Virus record (IMG/VR): IMGVR_UViG_3300037088_000812
Coordinates: 64,001-106,005 of that record
Origin: a virus
Strand: one strand, 5' to 3'
DNA length: 42,005 bases
Made by a program: the position numbers and the translations under genes. Shown in pieces: positions 7,628 through 42,005 of the stretch. Every line of letters begins with the position of its first letter. Within the stretch, counting starts at the first letter, position 1. The notes below the pieces were generated by a model that saw only the letters and a list, made by a program, of their open reading frames with translations, had not been told where the DNA came from and ran no database searches.

Positions 7628-8048
7628 TGTTATATTTGAACTCAAAAGAAAGGCAGCAATTTCGTTGTACCCTGACTTTGACGGAACTGAAAGCGACTAT
7701 CAACCAATAGTCGATCTGTTCGGTGACGTCGTCCTTCAAGTACAAGACGAAGATTACCAGGGCGATACTTGGGTTCTTTATAAAAGAGGAGAAACACGCT
7801 ACGGCCGACTTGAGTTTGGATGGGGCTCATGTTCAGGATGCGATGCGCTCCAAGCCTGTGGCTCATTAGGTGAAATCGACCAGTTGATAAATGAACTGTA
7901 TAACAGCATAGAATGGTTTGATGACGCTTCCGTTGCATTAAAATATTTCAAAGAACATAATGCAGATGAAGATATCGGTGGCAACGACAAAGCATTTACT
8001 GAAAAGGCAATAGAGTTACTTGAGGCCGTAGTTGGAAAAAAAGCGTAG
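7614..8048 (+). CDS. hypothetical protein (GWGSCSGCDALQACG motif)
   Basis: GGGGAGAAAG RBS before ATG 7614. The track's 7551 start overlaps the upstream gene. Confidence 0.45.
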   Translation: MDKHDVIFELKRKAAISLYPDFDGTESDYQPIVDLFGDVVLQVQDEDYQGDTWVLYKRGETRYGRLEFGWGSCSGCDALQACGSLGEIDQLINELYNSIEWFDDASVALKYFKEHNADEDIGGNDKAFTEKAIELLEAVVGKKA

Positions 8049-8445
8049 AGTCATTGAATGGTTGCAAGCTGTGCCTGGGGGCGAGCGTGTAACTAAAGTC
8101 GACGAAAATCATATTGAGCTCAAAACTTGGTGGCCAGATAACAAATATCAATTTGACGAAGCTCCCCATCTCCGTGAAATGTCTATCAAGTGGGGCCCAA
8201 ACGGTGATAACGATCATTATCACACTCGCGACGGCGAATACAAAGAATGGTACGAAAGTGGAGAATTAAGAGTACACTCATATTACAAACAAGGTCGAAT
8301 ACACGGAGAATGTAAAATTTGGACTAAAGACGGAAAAATAGATAGTCATGTATTCTTCAACCGCGGAGAAGAATTAAATAGAATTTTCTTTAATGCTAAA
8401 CCCGGCTATATTTTAGTAGACGGTAAATATTACTCTGATGACTAA
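8032..8445 (+). CDS. MORN-repeat protein
   Basis: Repeated G.....W...G.L.....Y..G...G pattern (EYKEWYESGELRVHSYYKQGRIHGECKIWTKDGKI). Confidence 0.55.
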   Translation: MEKKRRVIEWLQAVPGGERVTKVDENHIELKTWWPDNKYQFDEAPHLREMSIKWGPNGDNDHYHTRDGEYKEWYESGELRVHSYYKQGRIHGECKIWTKDGKIDSHVFFNRGEELNRIFFNAKPGYILVDGKYYSDD

Positions 8446-8938: not shown

Positions 8939-9575
8939 TTGGTCTTTGATCTTATGTATTATTTACTGGGCAATATTTGCCTCCTCATTTGTATTTCCTT
9001 CGTTTAAGAAAACACCGATCTACTCAATAAGTCTAACATCGATTATAGTAGTCCAACTAGGGGGTGTAGGCAAAACAGTTTACAAAAGATGGCGAAAGAA
9101 GCATCCTACAAAAAAGACCATAGCTCTTAACCTCTTATCAGATAAACCAAAGCCAGATAGTGTGTGGCGCAGCTTTGACGATAGAATTACAAAAATCTAT
9201 GATACTCTTGGTCAAGTAAGTTGCGTCTCAATTAAATTAAATAATCGAAGATGTAAAATGTACATGTATCATAATGGTTTTCTTCGTTCTATTAGAATAG
9301 AACATAGAGGATTTGAAGAATGGTTTTCTTGGTTAAATGATATTAAATGCCACTTCTTTGAAAAGAAAAATACGAAATGTGCTCAATGGAAATCATGGTT
9401 TGCTAACGGCGAAATACAACAAAACGGCTGGATGAATAAAGAGGGTGATTGTATAACTTACCCACATATGACAGACGACAAGTTTGTTAACTCTCTAATA
9501 TTTAAAGACGGCTATGCATTAGGTCCTGATATGAAATATTACCCAGATGAAGATGAAGGATATGACGCAATTTAA
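8895..9575 (+). CDS. Membrane protein with C-terminal MORN-like repeats
   Basis: Two N-terminal hydrophobic helices; C-terminus WFANGEIQQNGWMNKEGDCITY... Confidence 0.5.
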   Translation: MKIWMIYVKKFLKSNWSLILCIIYWAIFASSFVFPSFKKTPIYSISLTSIIVVQLGGVGKTVYKRWRKKHPTKKTIALNLLSDKPKPDSVWRSFDDRITKIYDTLGQVSCVSIKLNNRRCKMYMYHNGFLRSIRIEHRGFEEWFSWLNDIKCHFFEKKNTKCAQWKSWFANGEIQQNGWMNKEGDCITYPHMTDDKFVNSLIFKDGYALGPDMKYYPDEDEGYDAI

Positions 9576-9876
9576 TTTGACTGATTTTGAAACAATAAAA
9601 AATAAGTGGGTATACGACGTTAGGAATTATCGTAAGTTGCTCATAAAGCCGCTAGAGACGTTTTTTCATATCGATGGTGGAAACTGCTTATCGGTATTAA
9701 TTATTACAGGTTGGTGGCCTGGTGCAGGTGTTGATATGGAAGAAGCTCAGATAGAAAAAACTTGGATGACAGAAGAAAGGCTAAAATATCTCCAGATAGA
9801 TACAGATGTAGATCCAGACTTAGTGGCAAATTGTAAAAATCTTGAAACACGATGGTTACTGAGGGGCAACAACTAA
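9547..9876 (+). CDS. hypothetical protein
   Basis: ORF overlapping the upstream gene by 29 nt. Confidence 0.4.
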   Translation: MKMKDMTQFNLTDFETIKNKWVYDVRNYRKLLIKPLETFFHIDGGNCLSVLIITGWWPGAGVDMEEAQIEKTWMTEERLKYLQIDTDVDPDLVANCKNLETRWLLRGNN

Positions 9877-22953: not shown

Positions 22954-23060
22954 GCAGCATTCTCATTTTGAGAGAAAGTAGGAACGTAGCTCTAAAGTCC
23001 TTTTACATGTAAACTGCCTATGAATTCGTGTCCAGCGTATAATCTTCTCACAGCCCGCTC

Positions 23061-23068
23061 AAGATAAT
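23061..23068 (+). promoter_or_regulatory. AAGATAAT box 34 nt upstream of GTG 23102 (AAAGGTGG RBS between). A TATAAT at 23038-23043 and the conserved 22-mer 23015-23036 lie just upstream
   Basis: Direct observation of motif order: 22-mer, TATAAT, AAGATAAT, RBS, start. Confidence 0.4.
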
Positions 23069-25680: not shown

Positions 25681-26463
25681 ATGAAACTTAAAGATCTATT
25701 TGAAATGGGAATGGGGGCAGCAACTACTTCAGCTGGGGTGGGAGGTGCAGCAGCTACTACATCTGCAAATGTCCAAGGCGTACCCAAACCCGTAGGTGCT
25801 GTCATTACTCGTGAGTATGCGGGATATGATGCCGATCGTAGAAAGAAAAAGAAGAAGAAGGATGCTAATACATTCAGCGCTCCAACGTGGAAACATTATA
25901 AGAGTCCCATGAGACGACCTATGCATGAGGAAGAGGCTCATGGTGAAGCCGTGAATCCATCTGATAGAAAGAATGCCGACGATGGAAATGCCACTAAACT
26001 TGGTCGATTAGCATTCAAAGGTGATAGACCTAGATACAAGCCTAAGAAAACTTTCATTACAAGAAAACCAGCTAAACCCAAAGACATTAAAGAACAAGAT
26101 GAGTGGGAGCCATTACAACAGCGCACTCCTGCTATGGACTTAGAATGGTTAAGAAGAGGTTTTGAAGGTGATCGGCCAGGTTATGTACCCAAGAAACAAA
26201 AGATCACTAAGAAAGACAAAAGCCACAAGGGTATCAAAAAGTCAGTGCCAGTAGAAGAACAATTCATGGGTCCGCAATTATTTTATGATTCATCGCCGTA
26301 TCATGATCTAGAATTTTTAGTTAAGTTCTGGAGAGGTAGCAAGAAAGGCGAATTGATGCGACCGGAAAGTGCACCTAAAAGAAAGAAACGAGAAGATAAG
26401 CCATTAGGTACTTATGGCACTTCAATGCCGACATCTTCTACGCCACCAAAATCAGCTACTTAA
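25681..26463 (+). CDS. Basic K/R/P-rich hypothetical protein
   Basis: TAAATG junction. Gly/Ala/Thr-rich N-terminus, then poly-K and repeated GDRPxYxPKK segments. Confidence 0.45.
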   Translation: MKLKDLFEMGMGAATTSAGVGGAAATTSANVQGVPKPVGAVITREYAGYDADRRKKKKKKDANTFSAPTWKHYKSPMRRPMHEEEAHGEAVNPSDRKNADDGNATKLGRLAFKGDRPRYKPKKTFITRKPAKPKDIKEQDEWEPLQQRTPAMDLEWLRRGFEGDRPGYVPKKQKITKKDKSHKGIKKSVPVEEQFMGPQLFYDSSPYHDLEFLVKFWRGSKKGELMRPESAPKRKKREDKPLGTYGTSMPTSSTPPKSAT

Positions 26464-27619
26464 TATATCGGAAAATATCTCTTATTAGTTTTTTATTAAC
26501 TTCACCTTTTGGTCGACCGTCAAGGTCAAAACTATAAGTATGATTATTGTTGTCAAAACTAGCATCTATTTCGTTATAATTAATATCCATATCCACATTA
26601 GAAAAAACATTTGGTAATACAGTAGTAGTTTTATTACCGTCATATTTTACAACACCACAACGTTTTTCGTCCCCCACCGTACCCGCAATATATAAAAAAC
26701 CTTTATGTGTTTCAACATCAATTTCATCATAACTAGCATTCAATATATTTCGATGATGTTTGAAACTAAATAAGTTTTCATCGCCGCTACCCATGGTGAC
26801 TGGCATTAGATGATCGCCTTTGAAAGCTATTGTGTCGTATTGATTAACCTCTTGATAATTAAAAGGTATTATTATATTACCATTGGCATCTACCATGCCC
26901 TGCCTATTGCCTAGTGTTAATATGACATAAAGTTGCTTATCGATTCTAATAGTTTCATATTCATCATTATAATTAGTTGGTAATATCATATTACCAGTTT
27001 TCTTATTATACATTCCAACTTGATCATCTTTGCTTACTATCAATATGTCTTTAGTGAGATGCTCTAACACCTCGTCGTAAGCAACAGATAGAATTTTAAG
27101 TGTTTTTATATCTCTATGTTCAATAGTACCATCATCTTTAATTAACGATAAAGCTTTTGGATGTTCAAGAGTATCGACTTGATCATACTCATCAGGCAAT
27201 ACTTTTTTACCGTTTGTATCACAAACAGTCCACACATCGTCATCGTCTTTTAAGGCAATAAATTTATTAGATATACCCCATGCGCCCCTATACATGAAGT
27301 CTGTTAGATTTTTTCCCTGCGGATTAAATAATGCAAAATTATTATGTTCTTTAGTGACAATCCAATAGTAGTTGCCATGTGTAGCATCTATTTTATATTT
27401 AGGTGGAAGTATCGTCTTTTTGTGGATTTTGTCTCTTAGGCCGTGATTATAATTATCGTTCCAATCATTTCGTTTAGGCCGTTTAAAATCGCTAATGCCA
27501 TATTTATTAGCGTTACCTACATAGACAATTTTCTTTTTCTTCTTCTTTTTAGGCGTAGCGACGGGTACTACAACTTTCTTCTTTTTAGCTTCATCTAAAA
27601 TATCTAGTATAGAATTCAT
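26456..27619 (-). CDS. WG/beta-propeller-like repeat protein with poly-Lys N-terminal region and a C-terminal KKLIRDIFRYIK motif
   Basis: Only long minus-strand ORF. Repeats of the type G.....GK.ILP..Y..V. The C-terminal motif matches the small-protein tandem family. AAGATAAC box 7 nt upstream. Confidence 0.5.
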   Translation of the reverse strand: MNSILDILDEAKKKKVVVPVATPKKKKKKKIVYVGNANKYGISDFKRPKRNDWNDNYNHGLRDKIHKKTILPPKYKIDATHGNYYWIVTKEHNNFALFNPQGKNLTDFMYRGAWGISNKFIALKDDDDVWTVCDTNGKKVLPDEYDQVDTLEHPKALSLIKDDGTIEHRDIKTLKILSVAYDEVLEHLTKDILIVSKDDQVGMYNKKTGNMILPTNYNDEYETIRIDKQLYVILTLGNRQGMVDANGNIIIPFNYQEVNQYDTIAFKGDHLMPVTMGSGDENLFSFKHHRNILNASYDEIDVETHKGFLYIAGTVGDEKRCGVVKYDGNKTTTVLPNVFSNVDMDINYNEIDASFDNNNHTYSFDLDGRPKGEVNKKLIRDIFRYIK

Positions 27620-27652: not shown

Positions 27653-28237
27653 ATGAAGAAGAAAATTAAACGACCGCAAACTAAAGAACAAAGGAAATTT
27701 GAGCGGGAAAAGAGAAACGCCCGTTACGGCAAACACTGGGATGAAATAAGACAATATGTTTACCAGCGTGATGGATTTATGTGCAGAGCGTGTGGAAAGG
27801 GCGTACCAGAAGTAAAGAAACTCAATGCCCATCATATACTTTTACTTAGAGTAAGTCAGACAAACGATATAAGAAACTTAGTTACGCTCTGCGACGAATG
27901 TCATAAAATAATAGAAACTAAAGCTCTTAATTTACTTAAGGCTGGCGGGCATAGATTTGAAGTTTTTAGAATGACGCACAGATATTTATATGAGTGTAAA
28001 TTAAAAAGACAACAAGCTCTGTTAGAAGAATTAAATAAAAAACATGGCGAGCCGAAGCCCGCCATAGAGTTAGATTATAAACCTAATGTTGCAGTTGTCG
28101 TAGATGGTCCTGATAGCTTAGGTGCAACCGCTGGTGCCGCTACTGGTGCTGGTGTCGCTGGGACTACCGGTGCTGGTACCGCTACTGGTGCTGGTGCCGC
28201 TACTGGTGCTGGTGGGACTACCGGTGCCGCGGGCTGA
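27653..28237 (+). CDS. HNH endonuclease with low-complexity Gly/Ala/Thr C-terminal tail
   Basis: CRACGK...NAHHILLLRVSQTNDIRNLVTLCDECH is an HNH motif. The tail is encoded by 9/18-nt tandem repeats and overlaps the convergent minus gene. Confidence 0.7.
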   Translation: MKKKIKRPQTKEQRKFEREKRNARYGKHWDEIRQYVYQRDGFMCRACGKGVPEVKKLNAHHILLLRVSQTNDIRNLVTLCDECHKIIETKALNLLKAGGHRFEVFRMTHRYLYECKLKRQQALLEELNKKHGEPKPAIELDYKPNVAVVVDGPDSLGATAGAATGAGVAGTTGAGTATGAGAATGAGGTTGAAG

Positions 28238-28425
28238 ATCGGTGCTACGACCTTTGGCTTTGAAGTAGCAATCACTTCTTGTATCGCAGCCTTAGCTCTG
28301 ACTTCTAATTCTTTAGCCATAGACTCTAATTTAACCTCAAGTTCCTTGGCTTTATTTTCTAGATTTTTAACATAGGCCTCAAGCTCAACCTCGTTAAAAA
28401 TCTTTCCACTAACGCTAATATTCAT
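28075..28425 (-). CDS. Coiled-coil protein with Pro/Ala/Val-rich (PAPV) repeat linker
   Basis: GGAGG RBS 5 nt before the ATG on the minus strand. AAGATAAT box (plus-strand coordinates 28443-28450) upstream. Confidence 0.5.
   Translation of the reverse strand: MNISVSGKIFNEVELEAYVKNLENKAKELEVKLESMAKELEVRAKAAIQEVIATSKPKVVAPIQPAAPVVPPAPVAAPAPVAVPAPVVPATPAPVAAPAVAPKLSGPSTTTATLGL
28121..28233. repeat. Tandem 9/18-nt repeat (ACTGGTGCTGGTGCCGCT-like) in the convergent overlap of the HNH gene and minus gene 28075-28425
   Basis: Direct reading: at least 6 imperfect units. Encodes (GA/T)n on + and (PAPVA)n on -. Confidence 0.8.
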
Positions 28426-31982: not shown

Positions 31983-32019
31983 ATTGTGTGTTGTGTGTTA
32001 TTATCTATGACCGCCGTTA

Positions 32020-32330
32020 TGGCCGCCACTGTTGCCACCGTTATGGCCGCCACCGTTATGACCACTGCCACCTGGTGCTACAGCCATTTCCACTGTTTCC
32101 GCCGCCGTTATGACCACTGTTTCCGCCGCCGTTATGACCACTGTTTCCGCCGCCGTTATGACCGCCATCACAAGGAGGATGCGGTGGAGGACAAGGTGGC
32201 TTTGGCGGAGGACAAGGAGGTTTTGGTGGAGGACATGGAGGAGGTTTTGGTGGAGGACATGGAGGTGGACCTGGAGGAGGTGTTGGCCCAGGAGGCGTTG
32301 GAGTAGGACCGGGTCCTGGATTATGTCCTC
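32020..32330. repeat. Tandem nucleotide repeats (3 x 24 nt at 32091-32162, plus GGAGGACAAGG/TGG..TTTGG units 32170-32300)
   Basis: Direct reading of exact 24-nt units CACTGTTTCCGCCGCCGTTATGAC. Confidence 0.85.
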
Positions 32331-32526
32331 CCGTATTAATGATTGTTAAATCACTATTACATGGCCATGGCGTACATGGAACGCATGGGATATATGGAGG
32401 CCATATAATAAGAGGTATACTAATTTCTGCTACCCCACTATCCAGCTTCTTAGTATCTACCTTAGATTTATCAGAAGAAGTTATAATAGTTTTCTTCTCA
32501 ATGACAATAGTTTTCTTCACTATCAC
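32056..32526 (-). CDS. Pro-rich repeat protein (PPCPPPKPP repeats; GHNGGGNS x3 C-terminal repeats)
   Basis: GTG start in the track. Encoded by tandem nucleotide repeats. The open frame continues upstream to 32709 and there encodes a lipobox-like signal (IIRAILFGLLAVLVGC) without a canonical start. Confidence 0.45.
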   Translation of the reverse strand: MIVKKTIVIEKKTIITSSDKSKVDTKKLDSGVAEISIPLIIWPPYIPCVPCTPWPCNSDLTIINTGGHNPGPGPTPTPPGPTPPPGPPPCPPPKPPPCPPPKPPCPPPKPPCPPPHPPCDGGHNGGGNSGHNGGGNSGHNGGGNSGNGCSTRWQWS

Positions 32527-34039: not shown

Positions 34040-34068
34040 GTGGCCGAGTATGAATCTCTCGGCCACCC
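34040..34068 (+). terminator. Hairpin terminator candidate (GGTGGCCGAG-tatgaatct-CTCGGCCACC)
   Basis: 10-bp GC-rich stem after the glycosyltransferase stop; weak T-tract. Confidence 0.45.
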
Positions 34069-34087
34069 TTATCTATAATCCAACTAC

Positions 34088-34100: not shown

Positions 34101-34313
34101 ATGAAACAACCAGTAAGCTTGCGGCATAGCGCGATCAGAACTATCTTCAAAAGGATGGGCTCGCAGCTAGATATAAAAATGGTGCCGATTGATGATAGTG
34201 GACAAAAGTGGTTTCACGTACATTACTTTAATGGTGAAATCCTTTTATCTGTTCACAGCAAATTAGAACAATACTACGCAACTGATTTGATGAGGAAGTT
34301 TAGAGTAAAATGA
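34101..34313 (+). CDS. hypothetical protein
   Basis: ORF immediately after the box. Confidence 0.4.
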   Translation: MKQPVSLRHSAIRTIFKRMGSQLDIKMVPIDDSGQKWFHVHYFNGEILLSVHSKLEQYYATDLMRKFRVK

Positions 34314-34459
34314 AATTGTTCTTTTCCAAACAACATGATGTATATGAATTCGGTTCTGGCCCAGATAGTGTTACTACTCTTGCTTTAGTTATAGTTTATC
34401 AGTTGCCTGATCTCAAGAAATTTAGAATAATATATCACGCTAACCAGGCTGGAGAATAG
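34310..34459 (+). CDS. hypothetical small protein (49 aa)
   Basis: ATGA overlap with upstream gene; below the track size cut-off. Confidence 0.25.
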   Translation: MKLFFSKQHDVYEFGSGPDSVTTLALVIVYQLPDLKKFRIIYHANQAGE

Positions 34460-34764
34460 ATAAAAAAGCTAAAGAAGCTAACAACCACGATTTGATATCT
34501 ATTATATTTAAAGCAATGTCTATAAAGAAGAGCGACACATGATTCGCGCATATACTTATAATATTTCTCAGGGTGGCCGAGGCTACGGAGTCGCACTAAA
34601 CAATGAAAGCTATTATGTTGTTTTAGACCACTCAGGTAAGAGAAGTAGTTGGGGACATTTTTTAGAAAAATAAAAGAAACACAAGCTACATTTTATGAAC
34701 CTGGTGAAAGCAATGGAATACCTATTGCAGCCCGTCGTTTTATGGTAGGGCGAATTTTCAAAGG

Positions 34765-35353: not shown

Positions 35354-35581
35354 ATGTGGATGTATGTAGAGGCTGAGAAGTTTGACGCTTGGTGGCATGA
35401 CGGTGGTGTATTATATACGTCTGGTCAAACCAATATAGGATCAAACGACAAACCTGGAAAATTTACAATATGGCCTGATTGGGGTGAATCTATGCCAGCT
35501 ATGATACATGCCAGTAGAACACATCTGCGTAAGTTAATTCCAACTATATTTAATGCCAAAGAAATAATGAGCAGTTCATGA
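35354..35581 (+). CDS. Tandem small-protein family member (C-terminus RKLIPTIFNAKEIMSS)
   Basis: Shared C-terminal motif [RK]xL[IL]xx[IL][FW]xxKx[IF]. Confidence 0.5.
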   Translation: MWMYVEAEKFDAWWHDGGVLYTSGQTNIGSNDKPGKFTIWPDWGESMPAMIHASRTHLRKLIPTIFNAKEIMSSS

Positions 35582-35826
35582 AACTAAAGAGAGGTATGTT
35601 AATAAAGACAAATTATGAAGCCTACTGTCTAGTGACTAAAGTTGAGGGCCTTAATGTTTTTGGTGTTTGGTTAACTTCTACTTATTTAGACGTTAGTCCT
35701 CTGCCGGCGTTTGATGACGCCAATGACACTAAACAATTGACAAAAGTTAATCGGGCAGAAACGCGATATTTTCTAAAGAGCATATTCGAATGTTTTGACA
35801 AAGGATTTGTAAGAACAAAAATATGA
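35578..35826 (+). CDS. Tandem family member (C-terminus TRYFLKSIFECFDKGF)
   Basis: ATGA overlap; motif variant. Confidence 0.45.
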   Translation: MKLKRGMLIKTNYEAYCLVTKVEGLNVFGVWLTSTYLDVSPLPAFDDANDTKQLTKVNRAETRYFLKSIFECFDKGFVRTKI

Positions 35827-36086
35827 AATTATTTAAATGGGTTGGCGCGAAGGACATTATATTATTACCTTTTACTCGTATATTATTTAGAGATGACGTT
35901 TCTTATAAAATAATCTGGGGGGACAAAACAAGCGGTGAGTGGGAATCAGCTAATCTTCCTGAGGTCAGTCTTAAATTATATAAGCCTATGGAAAATGTAA
36001 AGCTACAACCAGTATCCTATAAAACTTTAGTGGAGTTTATATGGAGTAAAAAGTTTAGCGACTTTTTGAAGAAGACCTTAAAATGA
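35823..36086 (+). CDS. Tandem family member (KTLVEFIWSKKFSDF)
   Basis: ATGA overlap. N-terminus MKLFKWVGAKDIILLPF resembles that of 36358. Confidence 0.5.
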   Translation: MKLFKWVGAKDIILLPFTRILFRDDVSYKIIWGDKTSGEWESANLPEVSLKLYKPMENVKLQPVSYKTLVEFIWSKKFSDFLKKTLK

Positions 36087-36361
36087 CTTGGCAAAATGTT
36101 AATGCTGGCGAGTGGTTGAGAAGATCTTTTAAAGAATCTTTCTCTACTGGTGTAACCTACATTCATGTAAGTTATAAGACTGACAAGTTGGTAAGATACA
36201 AAGTATTCACGCTTATCAAAGGTCCCAGTAAGCTAGTATGTTATAAGAATGAATTAGTCAACCTAGACACTAAAATTCCAGCACCTTTTAAAAAGACTAA
36301 AACATATAGACCGCTAATATCAATCATTTTTAATACTAAAGAGTTTGATGTAAGATTATGA
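36083..36361 (+). CDS. Tandem family member (RPLISIIFNTKEFDV)
   Basis: ATGA overlap; motif. Confidence 0.5.
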   Translation: MTWQNVNAGEWLRRSFKESFSTGVTYIHVSYKTDKLVRYKVFTLIKGPSKLVCYKNELVNLDTKIPAPFKKTKTYRPLISIIFNTKEFDVRL

Positions 36362-36627
36362 AAGAAAAGCTTTTCAAATGGCACAAACGTGAAGATATGA
36401 TAGCCTTGCCATACAGAATATTAAAGCATCGGCATTATGCAATAATTTATAAAGAAAAAGGTGCCCCATATTGGACTGAGGGCACAATACATAAAGAAGA
36501 CCTAGAAAAATTTCATCAGATTAACTATAACTCAAAATTTGATTTTAGAGAGTTTATTAAAAATATGTTTAGCTGGGATTGGTCATTGCTGCCAACTATG
36601 AGCTGGACCCCGGGGTATTATAAATGA
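36358..36627 (+). CDS. Tandem family member (REFIKNMFSWDWSL)
   Basis: ATGA overlap; N-terminus MKEKLFKWHKREDMIALPY. Confidence 0.45.
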   Translation: MKEKLFKWHKREDMIALPYRILKHRHYAIIYKEKGAPYWTEGTIHKEDLEKFHQINYNSKFDFREFIKNMFSWDWSLLPTMSWTPGYYK

Positions 36628-36863
36628 TGTGGTGGTATTCAAATGGTCGCGACGTGTGGCAAGCTGGTAATAGATATTTTAAGTATTTAAACGACACACT
36701 TCGTGTTACAATCTTAGACACAGATGAGTTAATAGGAACACCCAAAGCCTCTGATGTATTAATGCGCAAGTTGTTTATAGTAATCTTCAAAGCTAAAGAC
36801 TTTGTAATAAATGAACCGAAGTGGAAAATGCCTAAGGGCATCTCTATAGTAGGTTTAAAATGA
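36624..36863 (+). CDS. Tandem family member (RKLFIVIFKAKDFVI)
   Basis: ATGA overlap; motif. Confidence 0.5.
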   Translation: MMWWYSNGRDVWQAGNRYFKYLNDTLRVTILDTDELIGTPKASDVLMRKLFIVIFKAKDFVINEPKWKMPKGISIVGLK

Positions 36864-37084
36864 AAGAACCATTCATGTTTTTCTATTCCACTGAAGTAGC
36901 TGATAATTGGAGAGTGCATAAAAATAATGATGCATTTAAGTATGACTTTGCAAGCAGCGCACTTATAACTACTGATCATCAATTTTCTACTACAGTAGGA
37001 ATGAGACCAGCAACTAGAAAACAATTGCAGAAACTTGTCCTTCGCATTTTTCAAGCTAATAGAATAACGAGTTATAATACATGA
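36860..37084 (+). CDS. Tandem family member (KLVLRIFQANRITS)
   Basis: ATGA overlap; motif. Confidence 0.5.
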   Translation: MKEPFMFFYSTEVADNWRVHKNNDAFKYDFASSALITTDHQFSTTVGMRPATRKQLQKLVLRIFQANRITSYNT

Positions 37085-37521
37085 AAGCAAATTATGGATT
37101 AATTGAATCAATATTTGAAGACCCTAGTTATCTAAGTAAAGATGGTCCAAGAAGGTTACCTGAAAACGCAGATGTGGGTCTTTGTATACTATATGCTAAA
37201 ATATGGCCTGAGTGGAAGAACGCTTTTGAAGACCCTAGTCAATATAACGTGCATCCGACAGAAGCCGTTTTAACGCAGTTCCAAAATGCTTTAGATACCA
37301 ACAAGAAAAAATACAACAAATATAATATGAGCCTTGATGATACAGACGACGGTTGGTCATTATATAAACAACAATATAAATGGAGAGTTTCTTTTACAGC
37401 TTATCCAAAAGGTAATTACACTTATTATATTTCTATAGGTATAAAGAAAAACGGTACTCTAGATATTAATGATATAGCAATAGATAAAGAAGAAGAAGAA
37501 TTTGATTGGACCGAAACCTAA
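37081..37521 (+). CDS. hypothetical protein (146 aa; not an obvious family member)
   Basis: ATGA overlap; lacks the C-terminal motif. Confidence 0.45.
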   Translation: MKANYGLIESIFEDPSYLSKDGPRRLPENADVGLCILYAKIWPEWKNAFEDPSQYNVHPTEAVLTQFQNALDTNKKKYNKYNMSLDDTDDGWSLYKQQYKWRVSFTAYPKGNYTYYISIGIKKNGTLDINDIAIDKEEEEFDWTET

Positions 37522-37727
37522 TGGTAAGATATAAAAACTACGGTAAAACAATAGTATGGATAGTAGGTAACAAATTCCTCATACATGAATATGAAGGACG
37601 ATTGATTGCTGTAACTAAATATAGAGCGTGGCACCCTGGTGAAGAAACAGCGACCCAAAACATAGAACATATACATGAATTAATCCGTGCACTGTTTAGA
37701 GCAAAAGCAATGAAGGTAGAGCTATGA
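37506..37727 (+). CDS. Tandem family member (HELIRALFRAKAMKV)
   Basis: Motif. Confidence 0.5.
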   Translation: MDRNLMVRYKNYGKTIVWIVGNKFLIHEYEGRLIAVTKYRAWHPGEETATQNIEHIHELIRALFRAKAMKVEL

Positions 37728-37963
37728 TCTTACCCAAGATAAAGCGAATTGTAAGATTCAACAAGGATTTCTTTTTAATCACTCGAACCAGAAACGGCGA
37801 ACCGTATGGCCCTATGGTTTGGCCCGTAGATAAATTAATAGAATACAGCCCAGGTTCAAATTTATATGCTGAAGACTATAAAGACGCCGAAGAGCTTACA
37901 CAAACGGAGCGTCGATCTTTAATACCCATGTTTTTTACTTTTAGATGGACTAAAGCAACTTAA
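37724..37963 (+). CDS. Tandem family member (RSLIPMFFTFRWTKA)
   Basis: ATGA overlap; motif variant. Confidence 0.45.
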   Translation: MILPKIKRIVRFNKDFFLITRTRNGEPYGPMVWPVDKLIEYSPGSNLYAEDYKDAEELTQTERRSLIPMFFTFRWTKAT

Positions 37964-38012
37964 CCTAATTTCAAATCTTCAAACTCTACACATATAGTTA
38001 TCCCTTACTAAT

Positions 38013-38020
38013 AAGATAAT
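38013..38020 (+). promoter_or_regulatory. AAGATAAT box 6 nt upstream of ATG 38027
   Basis: No SD between box and start. Confidence 0.45.
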
Positions 38021-38026
38021 TGTCTA

Positions 38027-38284
38027 ATGAAAATTTGGAGCAAGTTTCAAGGCGCAAAAGGATTACCAGTCTTTATACCATTTAAGTATGGCAAGCAATA
38101 TTGCACACTTTATCTAGATTCAAAGTATGATAAGTATTGGCGTAATAGCTGGGCGGACACTGAATATATAGCAGAGTGGCACTTAGAGGAATACAAGCCT
38201 ACTGAAAAAGATTACCACAATATTATGCTAACAATATTTGAGGCAGTGCGTTCCTACGATTGGACACCTCCGCTGAGAAAATAA
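38027..38284 (+). CDS. Tandem family member (HNIMLTIFEAVRSYD)
   Basis: Motif. Confidence 0.5.
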   Translation: MKIWSKFQGAKGLPVFIPFKYGKQYCTLYLDSKYDKYWRNSWADTEYIAEWHLEEYKPTEKDYHNIMLTIFEAVRSYDWTPPLRK

Positions 38285-38667
38285 TGAGTGGATTTAACCA
38301 AGACATAATATGTCCTTATTGTGATTTTGAAATGGCTGAATTGACAGAAAACTATAAAGGTGCAGCTGAATATAAAGGTGTAGAATATGGCAAGTTCTCT
38401 GGTTGTCCTTTATGTGGTTGGACAATGTGGGAAGATGCTATAAACAGGAAAGCCGACGACAAAGAAAAAATACCACCTAAGTCTGTCATTCTACAGGCCA
38501 AAAAGATAGTAAGGCTTTATGATAAAATACCAGATAATAATCACGCTTTAATAGATTACTTTGTAGGGTTCGCCACTTTCGTGTTTGATGATTACGCAAA
38601 CGTCAATAGAACCTATGTAAACTTCTTACGTGGTCTAGCATCCTATATATGGTATGGAGAAGTATAG
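38260..38667 (+). CDS. hypothetical zinc-ribbon protein (CPYCDF...CPLCGW)
   Basis: Two CxxC pairs; not a family member. Confidence 0.45.
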   Translation: MDTSAEKIMSGFNQDIICPYCDFEMAELTENYKGAAEYKGVEYGKFSGCPLCGWTMWEDAINRKADDKEKIPPKSVILQAKKIVRLYDKIPDNNHALIDYFVGFATFVFDDYANVNRTYVNFLRGLASYIWYGEV

Positions 38668-38885
38668 TGGCTAAATTATATTATGACATTAGCGGCTATA
38701 TGATATACTGGTGGGCTGATAAGATTGGTCCTGCACCAGTTTACACTTGGGATTATAGTGCTAGTGTGTTTGAAGTTGCACCTAGAGAATATTTTCATTT
38801 TAGAGAAGACTCAAAACTAGCTGGTATAATGCAACAGCATATACTGATAAATGCAATATGGGAAGCTAAAACAATAAGGCGCTAA
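38649..38885 (+). CDS. Tandem family member (QHILINAIWEAKTIRR)
   Basis: Motif. Confidence 0.5.
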   Translation: MVWRSIVAKLYYDISGYMIYWWADKIGPAPVYTWDYSASVFEVAPREYFHFREDSKLAGIMQQHILINAIWEAKTIRR

Positions 38886-39107
38886 ATGTGGTATTATAAA
38901 GATCATGTATGGCTACATGGCTATAAAATGTTTAGGGTATATTTGAAAATACCCGCTGAAACTAGTGTGTATTCTTTAAGCACTCAAACGTTAAAAAACT
39001 TAGAAAATGTACTTAGCATAAGAACCATATTGAAGCCAGCAACTGACAGCAATTTAAAAGAACTGATAACGTCTATTTGGAAGACCAAACATATAGAGGC
39101 TCGCTAA
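38886..39107 (+). CDS. Tandem family member (KELITSIWKTKHIEAR)
   Basis: Motif. Confidence 0.5.
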   Translation: MWYYKDHVWLHGYKMFRVYLKIPAETSVYSLSTQTLKNLENVLSIRTILKPATDSNLKELITSIWKTKHIEAR

Positions 39108-39310
39108 CTATGACGTATTTATACCATGATGACAAAATTCATAGCCGGTGGTTTTTAGCACCAGACATATGTTGGTTGTGGGGAAAGGATACTAATCGCT
39201 TAGTGGCTATTAGACCTTATGCTATACCGCTCGCCTATGTCAAAGCAACTAATATAAATTTGAGAGGATTAATAAGGGCAATCTGGTTGGCCAAAGAGAT
39301 AGTCTCATGA
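39077..39310 (+). CDS. Tandem family member (RGLIRAIWLAKEIVS)
   Basis: Motif. Confidence 0.5.
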   Translation: MEDQTYRGSLTMTYLYHDDKIHSRWFLAPDICWLWGKDTNRLVAIRPYAIPLAYVKATNINLRGLIRAIWLAKEIVS

Positions 39311-39498
39311 GTCAATATGGTCCATGGATTATAGGCAAATGGCACTATACGTATTACTCTGGTGCAGATATGTTTATCTCACGCGAGTATGATAATGATA
39401 CGTTTGGCCACTTCCATAAGATTGACAAGAAAATGAAATCTATATTTTCAACGATATTTAAGGCTAATGAATTTGACGAAGAGATACCCGCATTATAG
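39307..39498 (+). CDS. Tandem family member (KSIFSTIFKANEFDEE)
   Basis: ATGA overlap; motif. Confidence 0.5.
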   Translation: MSQYGPWIIGKWHYTYYSGADMFISREYDNDTFGHFHKIDKKMKSIFSTIFKANEFDEEIPAL

Positions 39499-39512
39499 TA
39501 TGAGGTTAAAAT

Positions 39513-39731
39513 ATGAATCTTAAAGATGTAGCAAAAGATGCAGCTAAAAAAGAAGCTGAGAAAGAAGGAAAAAAGAAAGGCACTTCTATGTGGCAATTCG
39601 TGTCCAAAGATGGTAAGACTAAAGTGAGGCAATTAAGTCCAGACAGCTGGCAGTTATGGCAAGATGGTAAAACTGAAACTATTGACCTTAAAGCTCTTTT
39701 AAAGAAAGCTGTAGATTTAACACAAGCCTAA
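39513..39731 (+). CDS. hypothetical Lys-rich small protein (not a family member)
   Basis: GAGG RBS; ORF. Confidence 0.4.
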   Translation: MNLKDVAKDAAKKEAEKEGKKKGTSMWQFVSKDGKTKVRQLSPDSWQLWQDGKTETIDLKALLKKAVDLTQA

Positions 39732-39732
39732 G

Positions 39733-40008
39733 ATGTGGTTATATAGTAAACAAGAGTGGGGCTTTGGCCCTGAAGATGTAAGACATCGCTTTAAGTATAT
39801 TAAACAAAGCTCCCACTCAAAAGATTTATATTATGAATTGGCTGATATAATGTTCACATTAAATAGAGAGGTAGTTTATAGTTTTAAGGATCGCATAAAA
39901 CACGCTACCTTTATACAGGATAGGACAGAAGATAGAGCTGACGAGGAACAACTTAAATTTTTAATTAAGGCTATATTTATGACAGATAAAAATATAAGGA
40001 GTGCTTGA
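39733..40008 (+). CDS. Tandem family member (LKFLIKAIFMTDKNI)
   Basis: Motif. Confidence 0.5.
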   Translation: MWLYSKQEWGFGPEDVRHRFKYIKQSSHSKDLYYELADIMFTLNREVVYSFKDRIKHATFIQDRTEDRADEEQLKFLIKAIFMTDKNIRSA

Positions 40009-40234
40009 TTTGATTAAAGCTTATACACCAGATGTTGATGCGCCCTATGAAGCATTCGCAACTTGGTCAATGGAGAAGTATTTTTACATTTGGTATGGAG
40101 CAGGTAGCGCTAGAAGATTAGCTATAACTCAAGCAGGACAAGCTAGTAAAGAGATGGCTAAGGCTACTAACAAACAATTGCACATGTTAATTGCAGTAAT
40201 ATTTCATGCTAGGGAAATAGAGGTGAACATATGA
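40001..40234 (+). CDS. Tandem family member (KQLHMLIAVIFHAREIEV)
   Basis: Motif. Confidence 0.5.
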   Translation: MLDLIKAYTPDVDAPYEAFATWSMEKYFYIWYGAGSARRLAITQAGQASKEMAKATNKQLHMLIAVIFHAREIEVNI

Positions 40235-40449
40235 TCTATTATATGAAAATCACCAAAGCTTCCCCAGATAGTTTCTGGTTCTTTAGCCAAAAGAATACTA
40301 CTTTCACCTGGCTCTCTCGCACTAGTATGTTGGGTATAGAGCATATGAACTATCACCCTAATTGGGCTAAAGACGAGGCTAATAGAAATCAATTACATCA
40401 GCTGTTGAAAATAGTATGGACAGTCAAAAGAATTGAAGGATATAAATGA
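40231..40449 (+). CDS. Tandem family member (NQLHQLLKIVWTVKRIEG)
   Basis: ATGA overlap; motif. Confidence 0.5.
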   Translation: MIYYMKITKASPDSFWFFSQKNTTFTWLSRTSMLGIEHMNYHPNWAKDEANRNQLHQLLKIVWTVKRIEGYK

Positions 40450-40742
40450 TAATCTATTATTTGACTAACTGGGACACGAAGTTCTGGCCAGGATATTGGC
40501 CTGCTTATGAATATTTCATTGAAGGTAACTTTGTACCAAAGATGCTTAAAGGCTCAACTAAGACACCTAACGAAGGTTATATAAGTGGCCTATGGTTTGT
40601 ACAGCAAGACAATAAAGTGGTAGCCAATCATACGGTAGCTAAAACTGAAATAGTGCCCTTACCTAAAAATGCTTATTTAGAAAATGGGCTTTGTGAATAT
40701 TTGATCACAGCACTCTTTAATGTGAATGAGATAGAAGATTAA
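40446..40742 (+). CDS. Tandem family member (EYLITALFNVNEIED)
   Basis: ATGA overlap; motif. Confidence 0.5.
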   Translation: MIIYYLTNWDTKFWPGYWPAYEYFIEGNFVPKMLKGSTKTPNEGYISGLWFVQQDNKVVANHTVAKTEIVPLPKNAYLENGLCEYLITALFNVNEIED

Positions 40743-40958
40743 GATGATTGAAATAAGAAAAACTAAAGGCGATAAAAGATTTTTTATCAAAAGACCTTAG
40801 CAAATCAGAAGGAAGTACACATGCTCATTCATATAATATTTGACGCAAGCGAGACAGAACGGAATGGGTAAAAAGTCAAATTTGAGAGCCAGTCGGAACG
40901 CTACCCTAAGAACTAAAGGGCTGCTTTTTGCCTACACATTCGTGTCCGGCATGAAGAA

Positions 40959-41288
40959 GTGATTATGAAAATAGGACAATGGTATTATTGGAAGAGTCAT
41001 ACTAAACGCTATATATTGCCATTGAAAGTACTCCCTGGAGAGAAGTTCCTGTTCATAATTGGTGAAGAAGGATCCAAGAACGAAAGCGATGTGATCGAAT
41101 GGTATGACGAAAAGATCCACAGAACTAGAGTAGAAATAAGCAAACATAAAGTCATATTCTGGGATCTTAGAACGGACTATATGGGAAACTATAATCTAAT
41201 AGATAAACAGCTAGCCCCAAAAGGCCTTCCAATAATAGTAAAGCTACCGTCGAATATAGCTCATAAAGTAATAAGGAATGTGATATGA
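40959..41288 (+). CDS. hypothetical protein, N-terminally related to the tandem family (KIGQWYYWKSHTKRYILPLKVL)
   Basis: ORF preceded by the conserved 22-mer at 40929-40950. Confidence 0.4.
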   Translation: MIMKIGQWYYWKSHTKRYILPLKVLPGEKFLFIIGEEGSKNESDVIEWYDEKIHRTRVEISKHKVIFWDLRTDYMGNYNLIDKQLAPKGLPIIVKLPSNIAHKVIRNVI

Positions 41289-41305
41289 TTTGCTCTCAGC
41301 CACAA

Positions 41306-41426
41306 GAAAACGTTATGGCAAACGCCGAATTGACGGCCAGTTGTTCTTGCGGTATAGAAACTAGCAAGGCGCTTTTTGCCTATGAGTTCGTGTCCAGGAA
41401 AACGTTATGGCAAACGCCGAATTGAC
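41306..41426 (+). repeat. 29-nt perfect direct repeat GAAAACGTTATGGCAAACGCCGAATTGAC (41306-41334 and 41398-41426)
   Basis: Exact duplicate read from sequence; the copies flank one copy of the conserved 22-mer. Confidence 0.9.
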
Positions 41427-41644
41427 AGCCCGCCGGTCGCCTGGCTCTAAAGCGCCCAGGGTTGAAACAGCCTATACTATCGTGTCTAGCGTAGTACTAG
41501 AGGCCTTTGCGTGATAGGCGTAGCTCGTGCGTGGGATCGCTACACTACTTGGAAGGTGGGTGCTAAGCTCGAGCCTGAGCTCATTACTCTTATCTGGACT
41601 GTGGAGATTATATCAGTATGATACTATTTAAAGCGGTGATGATA

Positions 41645-41878
41645 TCATATTATGTCTGGCGAACAGGCAGGATGCAGATAGTATATGACGAAGCTGAGAA
41701 TACTGTCTGCCTTCCATATGATAGGGAAGATCATCCTTAGTTGTTCAGTAGCAGCTTTACTAAAGCCCTCTGGCAGAGCGGATCTAGCCCGAAAGCATTC
41801 AATAGGTTGGTCTAGCCTCACTAATCTAGCAAAGAACCAAAGTGTTTGCCCGGGATAGCTATAGTCATAGTATATCAT
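41645..41878 (-). CDS. Inverted copy of the tandem family (MIYY...LWFFARL...EQLRMIFPIIWKADSIL), possibly a decaying pseudogene
   Basis: Homology to 40231-40449 (MIYYMKITKASPDSFWFFSQ...NQLHQLLKIVWTVKRI) on the opposite strand. Reads through past the motif for 16 extra residues. Confidence 0.3.
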   Translation of the reverse strand: MIYYDYSYPGQTLWFFARLVRLDQPIECFRARSALPEGFSKAATEQLRMIFPIIWKADSILSFVIYYLHPACSPDII

Positions 41879-42005
41879 CTAATACACTGTTCATATGGAA
41901 TGGCAACGAGCTAAGAGTTAATTATCCTGACTACATACCAAGCTGGGCCGAGAAGCAAGCTACTCCTAAACAATTGCATGATCTGATGTATCATATATGG
42001 AACGC
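41842..42005 (+). CDS. Partial tandem-family member running off the right edge (...PKQLHDLMYHIWN)
   Basis: GTG 41842 opens a frame containing the family motif. No ATG; 3'-truncated by the window. Confidence 0.3.
   Translation, partial: MFARDSYSHSISSNTLFIWNGNELRVNYPDYIPSWAEKQATPKQLHDLMYHIWN

Follow-up and report, generated by a model that had tools for sequence, protein, structure and literature searches.

A large and diverged family of small proteins with a predicted sheet-plus-helix fold, expanded in a distant T4-like phage, with a possible role in host interaction

Introduction

What are dozens of small, related genes doing side by side in the genome of one phage? The question arises from a 42,005-nucleotide (nt) stretch of viral DNA, positions 64,001 to 106,005 of IMG/VR record IMGVR_UViG_3300037088_000812 (here the window), in which 21 consecutive open reading frames (ORFs) of 63-146 amino acids (aa) each lie on the plus strand from 35354 to 40742. 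An earlier reading of this DNA (the original prediction) had seen in the array a set of paralogues with diverged N-terminal parts and a shared C-terminal motif, which it likened to a packaging tag on virion-borne effectors such as the internal proteins (IPs) of phage T4. Here we describe the array as part of a much larger, lineage-specific family, set out a predicted structural role for the motif, and weigh what such a family may do for the phage.

Results

The motif stands above background and is conserved as protein

A 17-column hidden Markov model (HMM) of the motif scored 18 of the 21 array ORFs at 10.5-21.7 bits, one more than the 17 originally counted, and also picked up an ORF outside its training set that runs off the window end. 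Across a six-frame translation of the whole 42-kb window, the best unrelated fragment reached 9.3 bits and the next at most 6.3. The original prediction had named composition-matched shuffling as a check on the motif, which again stood above background: when each member was left out in turn and compared with 300 shuffles of its own composition, no more than two shuffles reached the real score in 15 of 19 members, the divergent ORFs at 35823, 36358, 37724 and 40446 not being significant alone. A strict regular expression, [LIVMF][LIVMF]xx[LIVM][FW] within the last 22 residues, matched 27 of 43 array genes against 2.7% per background window (p ~1e-31). The distance from the motif to the C-terminus varies between 5 and 22 residues. 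Each conserved residue is written with three to five synonymous codons (one Leu column uses TTA, CTG, TTG, CTT and CTA), so that it is the protein that is conserved, and neither a DNA element nor recent gene conversion accounts for the pattern.

One proposed bearer of the motif did not withstand the same scrutiny. The WG-repeat protein on the minus strand (26456-27619), whose terminus KKLIRDIFRYIK had been taken for another copy, scores 4.3 bits (E = 2) with the motif HMM and 0.7% probability in hhalign. Among 70 non-array proteins, 6 have a C-terminus that fits a loose regular expression, about two being the expectation (p = 0.012), so that this match is indistinguishable from chance, and the protein was rejected as a family member on HMM, hhalign and regular-expression background.

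Whole-length homology in the main subfamily

All ORFs of the window, its extension and two relatives were compared using jackhmmer, with reversed sequences as decoys. This linked 45 members of a main subfamily (type A) at E < 1e-3, 12 of them inside the window, with no decoy below E = 1, and about 14 further array ORFs outranked the first decoy in an iterative profile search. N-terminal parts alone, with the motif removed, gave 12 pairs at E < 0.01, compared with 0-3 in shuffles. Type A proteins start M-(I/W)-Y-Y, corresponding to strand 1 of the predicted fold, and carry a near-invariant Trp at position 16 (strand 2). The conserved columns before the helix (W16, F18, F25, W27, L34 and I36) occupy alternating positions in strands 2-4, and those of the helix region are A50 (invariant in 46 of 46), T51, Q54, L55, H/R56, L58, I59, K/R60, I62, W/F63, A65, K66 and I68; the remaining sheet and loop columns are highly variable (< 1.4 bits). 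Identity between paralogues is 15-30%.

A second subfamily (type B), with an MKLFKW(Y) start in which LFKW(Y) lies at a variable offset of 1-7 residues from Met, dominates the far end of a second array beyond the window, and is represented in the window at 35823, 36358 and probably 38027. The N-terminal parts of the first two match one another at E = 4e-6, bearing out the MKLFKW subgroup noted earlier. A third style, with K-x-G-x-W-Y starts (35578 and 40965), likewise ends in the motif, and the N-terminal part of the former matches w46631 (E = 1.6e-3). Type A and type B profiles align over the helix only (18 columns, probability 47%, E = 2e-4). The N-terminal divergence described in the original prediction thus holds between types A and B, which share only the helix, but not within the main subfamily. 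Taken together, mutual similarity, tandem order and restriction to one lineage fit a lineage-specific expanded paralogous family.

The motif is predicted to be a core helix

Using AlphaFold2 (AF2), we modelled the type A member at 40231..40449 with 24 aligned relatives, and the type B member at 35823..36086 with 12 sequences. The type A model consists of antiparallel strands at residues 2-6, 14-18, 23-28 and 33-38, a loop, a helix at 52-64 and a strand at 67-71, in a beta4-alpha-beta arrangement. The helix is its most confident block, after which the chain rejoins the sheet, and the motif coincides exactly with the helix plus the last strand. The conserved L, I, I and W/F residues all lie on the same helix face, A-K-x-I turns the chain into the last strand, and the preceding A-T-x-x-Q-L is what we take to be a helix-capping box, with an N-cap Thr, Gln or Glu at N3 and a hydrophobic staple between the pre-cap residue and N4. 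In the model, the conserved inward-facing sheet residues are natural packing partners of the helix face, and in type A they co-vary with the motif helix. The type B model (predicted local distance difference test, pLDDT, 79) contains five strands, the motif helix at 63-73 and then a second helix, so both models place the motif helix after a beta-sheet. In separate comparisons, a beta-clamp or PIP-box-like reading of QLxxLI was rejected, as its spacing does not fit these motifs, and predicted viral structures (BFVD) gave no significant fold match.

The prediction is thus that the motif builds the fold as its core helix and is no detachable address tag, a reading that is fairly secure for type A and that argues against a free packaging tag. 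The C-terminal helix sought by the original prediction is present in both models, but in type A it is predicted to pack into the domain; whole-length homology, the position of the motif as a crossover helix plus final strand in the model, the cap residues, and the N-terminal, cleaved nature of the T4 signal all count against the packaging tag in the main subfamily. A semi-conserved basic stripe (H/R56, K/R60 and K66) also runs along the helix.

The array continues for some 13 kb beyond the window

The window is an identical part of a 178,186-bp metagenome scaffold, and loci L001 and L019 were used to read past its end. There the array runs on for ~13 kb, to about window-coordinate 55,000: two further members are followed by a 933-aa gene (L001:12019-14820, window-coordinates 42464-45265), which is the only interruption of the expansion, and by a second array, whose immediate downstream neighbours are a 733-aa gene, a gp53-like baseplate wedge gene (a phrog_7145 match) and a gp5-like hub gene. 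The 933-aa protein, which has a 936-aa counterpart at the same position in the relative L017, gave no family, PHROG or PDB match, and PHROGs, Pfam and PDB were searched to no avail with the large flanking proteins of 613, 933 and 733 aa. From 35354 to ~55,000 there are 58 small genes, 42 with the strict motif and ~50 when degenerate variants are counted, so that the paralogue expansion, already remarked upon for its size, is larger than the window shows. We place the family at ~55 genes and roughly 15 kb, about 9-11% of the 178-kb phage genome. Members are 63-98 residues in length with a shared domain of ~75 residues; most are basic (isoelectric point, pI, 9-10) and carry 8-18 aromatic residues each, while several are acidic or neutral (pI 4.8-6.7).

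Gene packing within the first array is tight. Eleven of its 20 junctions are 4-nt ATGA overlaps, as described in the original prediction, but the remainder extend beyond the 1-8-nt overlaps given there, being overlaps of 1, 8 or 19 nt or gaps of 0-14 nt, with a single larger gap of 63 nt (37964-38026). Few array genes have a Shine-Dalgarno sequence of their own, which together with the ATGA-type overlaps makes coupled translation of the array cistrons probable. Many N-termini read MK or MI because the ATGA overlap forces A as the first base of the second codon. Three interspersed ORFs (37081-37521, 38260/38284-38667 and 39513-39731) are non-members, as had been noted.

An 8-nt box, AAGATAAT, lies 3-30 nt 5' of 14 or more gene starts across the window and its extension, often exactly 3-6 nt before ATG and otherwise followed by a Shine-Dalgarno sequence. 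Both in-window array units begin with it. No conserved -35 element was found 5' of the boxes, which are absent from replication genes such as the gp32-like gene and present before the baseplate-V gene of L017. The box may be a late-type promoter of this lineage or a leaderless-mRNA signal. The T4 late-promoter motif TATAAATA is not enriched, with no occurrence upstream of the array, and scans of the array for sigma-70 promoters and terminators returned chance levels.

Relatives reveal purifying selection and rapid turnover

Orthologue pairs between the window and the relatives L015 and L011 have ratios of nonsynonymous to synonymous substitution rates (dN/dS) of 0.11-0.16. These values, with intact ORFs in several diverged relatives, contradict a single degenerate duplication, which the original prediction had named as an outcome that would undo it. 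The short contigs of L011 and L015 are wall-to-wall arrays of the family, and the more distant L017 (a 32-kb contig) has the same layout. Against 38886-40742, L015 keeps five genes as orthologues (70-85% identity); 39307 and 40446 have no orthologue there, the 40001 slot is taken by a different paralogue, and 39733 is split in two. The comparison across relatives that had been suggested earlier therefore reveals fast turnover, at least four slots having been lost, split or replaced in L015. L011 has a largely different repertoire with few one-to-one orthologues. The best-conserved gene of the locus among relatives is the interspersed one at 39513-39731, whose counterpart in L011 forms an in-frame fusion with a decayed copy from the family. 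Ten strain contigs from different samples (L001-L010) are 99.9-100% identical over the locus, and the population-level ratio of nonsynonymous to synonymous polymorphism is therefore uninformative. In two of them, L007 and L004, 117 bp within the 146-aa interspersed gene are tandemly duplicated (37383-37499).

Copies in various states of decay and rearrangement flank the first array. The inverted minus-strand copy noted earlier at 41645-41878 is complete and belongs to the family (profile E = 3.8e-8), and the copy running off the window end is also real (E = 9e-14), ending at 42024 in the source scaffold, where L001 makes its full C-terminus (...KQLHDLMYHIWNAPSIKTS) visible. Two motif fragments in disrupted copies, at 34444-34539 and 40776-40868, score 13.4 and 15.6 bits, respectively, despite being absent from the motif HMM training set, and the stub at 40746 has an intact homologue in L015 (1464-1673). 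The split, frameshifted, truncated and inverted copies, with the differences in L015 and L011, constitute a birth-and-death pattern.

The family is confined to one T4-like phage and its close relatives

The HMM search of protein databases proposed with the original prediction returned little beyond close relatives: among 1.84 billion representative proteins, a HMMER family profile found only this phage, five close-relative orthologues and three repetitive false positives. Searches of all members with Pfam, PHROGs, NCBIfam and PADLOC gave scattered single-member noise, including one stray match of one member to PADLOC defence-system models and none common to the family, and PDB sequence profiles had no match to type A or type B. 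Neither megablast of the array nor tblastn of the family consensus found anything in 50,697 phage records (INPHARED), a scan of IMG/VR with one member gave no match, and neither a known immunity domain (SUKH, Imm families) nor an adjacent toxin gene was found. The phage itself is a very distant T4-like virus of soil and wood metagenomes, with a gp32-like protein 28% identical to cyanomyovirus counterparts.

Feature coordinates and neighbouring elements

Features of the locus are collected in Table 1. A repeat of ~75 nt occurs in four copies (22960-23042, 40874-40956, 41322-41404 and 41414-41496) with conserved blocks ATTTGAGAGCCAGTnGGAAC and GCCTAnnnnTTCGTGTCC, giving five pattern matches where 0.16 would be expected. 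Three of the copies lie together immediately behind the first array, flanking the 107-aa gene, and the fourth lies upstream of the AAGATAAT box at 23061; the repeat matched neither tRNAs nor Rfam, and its copies share no consensus fold. The GC-richer segment 40870-41640 was considered as a tRNA, intron or small RNA and rejected, with no tRNA, no Rfam match at E = 1 and a fold energy no better than shuffles (z = +1.6). A perfect hairpin, GGTGGCCGAG...CTCGGCCACC, is found at 34040-34070, just 3' of the 391-aa gene, and its 10-mer recurs inverted 500 nt downstream (34553-34581), the pair bracketing decayed family copies.

Elsewhere in the window, a MORN-repeat protein (YwqK-like, PF07661) is encoded at 8032-8445 and the WG repeats of the 26456-27619 protein belong to PF14903; both are repeat families that one would sooner expect in a bacterial genome. 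The second array ends with another small MORN-like protein (window-coordinate 54086). Low-complexity ORFs overlap on opposite strands at 31986-32526 and 27653-28425, where either strand may be coding: one pair sets a His/Gly/Asn repeat against a Pro-rich PPPKPPPCPPP sequence, and the other the Gly/Ala/Thr-rich tail of an ORF against a PAPVA-repeat protein. The Gly/Ala/Thr-tailed ORF has a Cys/His pattern that looks HNH-like by eye, with no family match, and another window ORF may be RNase H-like, judging from its translation.

Table 1. Coordinates of boxes, array genes and decayed or rearranged copies (window coordinates unless stated; pTM, predicted template-modelling score)
Feature	Position	Strand	Evidence or remark
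AAGATAAT boxes	4204, 4604, 19856, 23061, 27642, 28471, 31207, 32810, 34088, 35343, 38013	+	
AAGATAAT boxes	28450, 27632	-	
AAGATAAT boxes outside the window	window-coordinate 52365; L017:10642, 17228		
Frameshifted remnant 5' of array	34310..34539	+	MKLFF... ORF, then motif fragment NNHDLISIIFKAMSI in another frame
Candidate promoter/initiation box AAGATAAA	35343..35350	+	AAGATAAT-type; 3 nt 5' of first array gene
Array gene 1, 75 aa, type A	35354..35581	+	Motif HMM 21.2 bits; core profile E = 1.4e-6; leave-one-out 0/300 shuffles
Array gene 2, 82 aa, divergent, K-x-G-type N-terminus	35578..35826	+	Motif 14.0 bits; leave-one-out 2/300
Array gene 3, 87 aa, type B (MKLFKW)	35823..36086	+	Motif 11.4 bits; orthologues P0029, P0030
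Array gene 4, 92 aa, divergent	36083..36361	+	Motif 14.8 bits; leave-one-out 0/300
Array gene 5, 89 aa, type B	36358..36627	+	Motif 15.3 bits; N-terminal part vs gene 3 E = 4e-6
Array gene 6, 78-79 aa, type A, 22-aa tail past motif	36624..36863	+	Core profile E = 2.3e-10; motif 14.7 bits
Array gene 7, 74 aa, type A	36860..37084	+	Core profile E = 3.4e-19
Interspersed acidic protein, 146 aa, non-member	37081..37521	+	Motif score 1.7 bits; pI 4.7; no Pfam/PHROG match
Array gene 9, 68 aa, type A	37521..37727	+	Core profile E = 1.2e-10; ATG 37521 as in public gene call; alternative TTG 37506
Array gene 10, 79 aa, divergent	37724..37963	+	Motif 13.0 bits (trained HMM); leave-one-out not significant
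AAGATAAT box in the array's only sizeable internal gap	38013..38020	+	Probable mark of a second expression unit
Array gene 11, 85 aa, type B-like	38027..38284	+	Motif 16.0 bits; found as P0021 by type B profile
Interspersed 127-aa protein, N-terminal CxxC...CxxC zinc ribbon, non-member	38284..38667	+	Degenerate motif-like end FLRGLASYIW; motif score ~0
Array gene 13, 78 aa, type A	38649..38885	+	Core profile E = 1.9e-10
Array gene 14, 73 aa, type A	38886..39107	+	Core profile E = 4.5e-9; L015 orthologue 70% identical, dN/dS 0.15
Array gene 15, 66 aa, type A	39110..39310	+	Core profile E = 1.1e-14; alternative TTG 39077; orthologue P0011 78% identical, dN/dS 0.14
Array gene 16, 63 aa, divergent type A	39307..39498	+	hhalign vs core profile: 82% probability, residues 6-57
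Interspersed Lys-rich protein, 72 aa, not a clear member	39513..39731	+	Motif < 2 bits; 75-85% identity in L011, L015; dN/dS 0.11-0.16
Array gene 18, 91 aa, type A	39733..40008	+	Core profile E = 2e-10; L015 orthologue split into two ORFs
Array gene 19, 77 aa, type A	40001..40234	+	Motif 21.7 bits; core profile E = 2.9e-15; GTG start with AAGGAG Shine-Dalgarno
Array gene 20, 72 aa, type A, modelled member	40231..40449	+	AF2 pLDDT 94.6, pTM 0.78
Array gene 21, 98 aa, divergent	40446..40742	+	Motif 10.5 bits; orthologue P0006; weak in leave-one-out
Decayed copy	40746..40868	+	18-codon N-terminal stub MIEIRKTKGDK... plus motif fragment QKEVHMLIHIIFDAS in other frame
107-aa gene, K-I-G-Q-W-Y-type N-terminus, truncated motif	40965..41288	+	L017 homologue (9485-9784) ends IEHKAIKMIWENADAIIL
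Inverted full-length type A copy, 77 aa	41645..41878	-	Core profile E = 3.8e-8; motif 18.1 bits; uncalled in public annotations
N-terminally truncated type A copy	41842..42005	+	Core profile E = 9.3e-14; head-to-head with inverted copy; ends window-coordinate 42024

Discussion

Size, turnover, purifying selection and precedent point to binding as the most likely function of these proteins. The reading that we favour, and that we hold to be about evenly poised between right and wrong, is a diversified battery of host-interaction binders, maintained under birth-and-death and built on a sheet-plus-helix domain. The arrays would then constitute one orphan family of small soluble proteins expanded within one lineage, with the first array as its first third. 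Each member would be a single compact domain, in which a variable, aromatic-rich antiparallel beta-sheet has its inward face covered by the conserved C-terminal amphipathic helix, followed in the main subfamily by a short last strand. The helix would combine a capping box with hydrophobic staple (A-T-x-x-Q-L), a buried face (L, I, I, F/W) and a turn (A-K-x-I), and the motif would be conserved because the helix holds the fold together, leaving the outer strand faces and loops free to vary. The family would grow and shrink through tandem duplication, divergence, inversion and decay, and each paralogue may offer a different surface to a different host target, in host takeover or counter-defence; it would thus be a phage counterpart of the gene-amplification 'accordion', fixed and then diversified. 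The position of the locus in a fast-turnover accessory region of a T4-like phage fits a role in an arms race.

Several observations weigh against the binder battery. No anti-defence or takeover protein so far known is homologous to the family. A single common ancestor of the expansion is something that we infer from architecture rather than prove, because types A and B align over the helix only, and their fold-search neighbours differ, with type A resembling an open sheet (BRICHOS, LolA) and type B an SH3-like barrel, all of them generic. The basic stripe on the helix is unneeded for packing and could be a shared binding surface, and the basic pI of 9-10 of most members would also suit nucleic-acid binding. 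Finally, the architecture of the AAGATAAT box, without a -35 element, recalls T4 late promoters and would fit late over early expression, which is harder to reconcile with a classical takeover of the host early in infection.

Some of these points favour virion packaging, in which the C-terminal helix would be a capsid-targeting or docking element that loads the prohead with co-injected anti-defence cargo. We consider this rather unlikely. In size (~8-11 kDa), compactness and basic charge the members resemble mature IPI* (76 aa, with beta-sheets and terminal helices; PMC3012670), and the locus adjoins gp53-like and gp5-like baseplate genes, as ipI does in T4. The -35-less box heads the array units and the L017 baseplate-V gene in a manner that recalls late promoters, though its promoter class is unproven and TATAAATA is not enriched. 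Subfamilies with unrelated-looking N-terminal parts have only the helix in common, and the helix bears its semi-conserved basic stripe. Conversely, the prohead protease of T4 cleaves off an N-terminal signal, whereas the family has neither a common N-terminal sequence nor a conserved cleavage site. The high-confidence type A model places the hydrophobic face of the helix within a beta-alpha-beta crossover with an integrated strand after it, the residues conserved before the helix form its cap, and the motif keeps no fixed distance from the C-terminus, lying 5-22 residues away. In a broader form, the helix would be a common docking module for ~50 small proteins, acting through its basic stripe or by swinging out, and serving either prohead loading with co-injection or attachment to one shared host or phage machine; this, too, seems doubtful.

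In a related scheme, the helix or its basic side would dock all members to a single partner while the variable sheet recruits clients, in the style of F-box or SOCS-box adaptors, the candidate partners being a host protease, polymerase or ribosome, a phage hub protein, or the membrane. The helix is indeed the only element common to types A and B, and a degenerate version ends larger proteins of the locus that have other N-terminal domains (the 127-aa zinc-ribbon protein and proteins of 131, 141 and 145 aa). The basic stripe, together with Trp-rich type B tails (FVWTWSLKS, FFWKWDDE), resembles interfacial or membrane-seeking sequences. Against such an adaptor or anchor, no candidate partner has emerged, AF2 buries the hydrophobic face of the helix, no transmembrane segment or signal peptide is evident on reading the member sequences, and joint conservation of the inward sheet residues and the helix is what a purely structural role predicts. 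We regard it as quite improbable.

Nucleic-acid binding carries a similarly small chance in our judgement. Here the members would be small, basic, aromatic-rich proteins in the style of Sso7d or SH3-like folds, acting as DNA or RNA regulators or coating the genome, with diversified specificity. The prevailing pI of 9-10 and the 8-18 aromatic residues per member are consistent with this, and the ~35 zinc ribbons of phage G have been read as transcription factors or structural DNA-binding proteins (PMC7824862). Basic pI is nevertheless weak evidence, because AT-rich phage proteomes are generally Lys-rich; several members are acidic or neutral (pI 4.8-6.7), and family-library searches of the members found no known nucleic-acid-binding signature.

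That the motif is a matter of chance or composition, that the array is a non-expressed degenerate duplication, or that a cis-acting DNA repeat is involved is extremely improbable: decayed copies do exist (34310-34539 and 40746-40868), public annotations call no gene at the inverted copy and four divergent in-window members fail the strict leave-one-out test, but the six-frame, shuffle and regular-expression backgrounds, the many synonymous codons at conserved residues, the orthologue dN/dS of 0.11-0.16, the intact ORFs kept in several diverged relatives and the confident fold prediction all speak against it.

A battery of host-interaction binders therefore remains the reading that we prefer. 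Whichever function applies, the ~55 diverged copies are maintained in a capsid-limited genome, which implies that diversity is under strong and continuing selection. None of the protein-family and structure libraries searched contains the family, for which a simple scaffold carrying a hypervariable surface is predicted at high confidence. Should the members bind host factors, the locus would amount to a library of small inhibitors made by nature, and their targets could point to defence or housekeeping systems in an uncultured soil host. Packaging would instead make the helix a new protein-delivery signal, a C-terminal, non-cleaved counterpart of the T4 capsid-targeting sequence, and either docking or packaging would put the scale an order of magnitude above any known internal-protein set. 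The locus is also a clean model of birth-and-death gene evolution in a virus, with intact, split, frameshifted and inverted copies visible.

Comparison with known systems

The IP locus of T-even phages is the system to which the original prediction compared the array. T-even IPs are a diverse set of small anti-restriction proteins, with an anti-defence role established for IPI* (PMC3012670). Like the present family, they are small, compact and often basic, their set is highly polymorphic between related phages, and one short conserved terminal element is borne by otherwise diverse sequences. The parallel may extend to location, in that T4 ipI lies 3.5 kb from genes 53 and 5 and the arrays here end 2.6 kb upstream of the gp53-like and gp5-like genes, albeit with different intervening genes. 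It does not hold for the signal, which in T4 is N-terminal, ~10 residues long (MKTYQEFIAE-like) and cleaved, whereas the element here is C-terminal, ~20 residues long and a predicted core helix. Alignments of types A and B contained no N-terminal T4-type capsid-targeting sequence common to the family and no conserved (L/I)-x-E beside either terminus; internal proteins had no sequence match to the family, and IPI* was not among the PDB fold-search matches listed. T-even phages also carry one to few IP genes, compared with ~55 family genes in this phage.

Tandem amplification under pressure from host defence offers a second parallel. T4 amplifies tifA, which encodes an 85-aa ToxN inhibitor, to beat the ToxIN defence (PMC9391042). 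In such accordions, including that of poxvirus K3L, a small inhibitor gene is tandemly duplicated under host-defence pressure; the copies there are recent and identical and raise dosage, while those described here are ancient and have diverged to 15-30% identity under purifying selection. Diverged arrays would be the expected end state of an accordion after diversification, a link that we infer. The hyperplastic regions of T4-like phages likewise consist of small, co-directional, tightly packed genes between core modules that vary between relatives. The host-takeover module of SPO1 is a comparable array of small accessory genes. The genes of these regions are mostly unrelated to each other, whereas nearly all of those here belong to one family or share one motif.

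The only comparable case that we found in the literature is that of Bacillus phage G, in which ~35 zinc-ribbon proteins form a lineage-specific expansion called unprecedented in size (PMC7824862). Both expansions comprise dozens of copies of one very small domain in one large phage genome. They differ in the domain, a zinc ribbon there and a beta-sheet plus helix here, and in organisation, the present family forming two tight, translationally coupled arrays with turnover documented among relatives. The present phage, at 178 kb, is also not a jumbo phage, and the family takes up a larger share of its genome. Paralogue expansions in large phages are already known; the present one, of an unrecorded family that lacks recognisable relatives in fold, is of greater size, fills about a tenth of a non-jumbo genome and displays its evolutionary dynamics in plain view.

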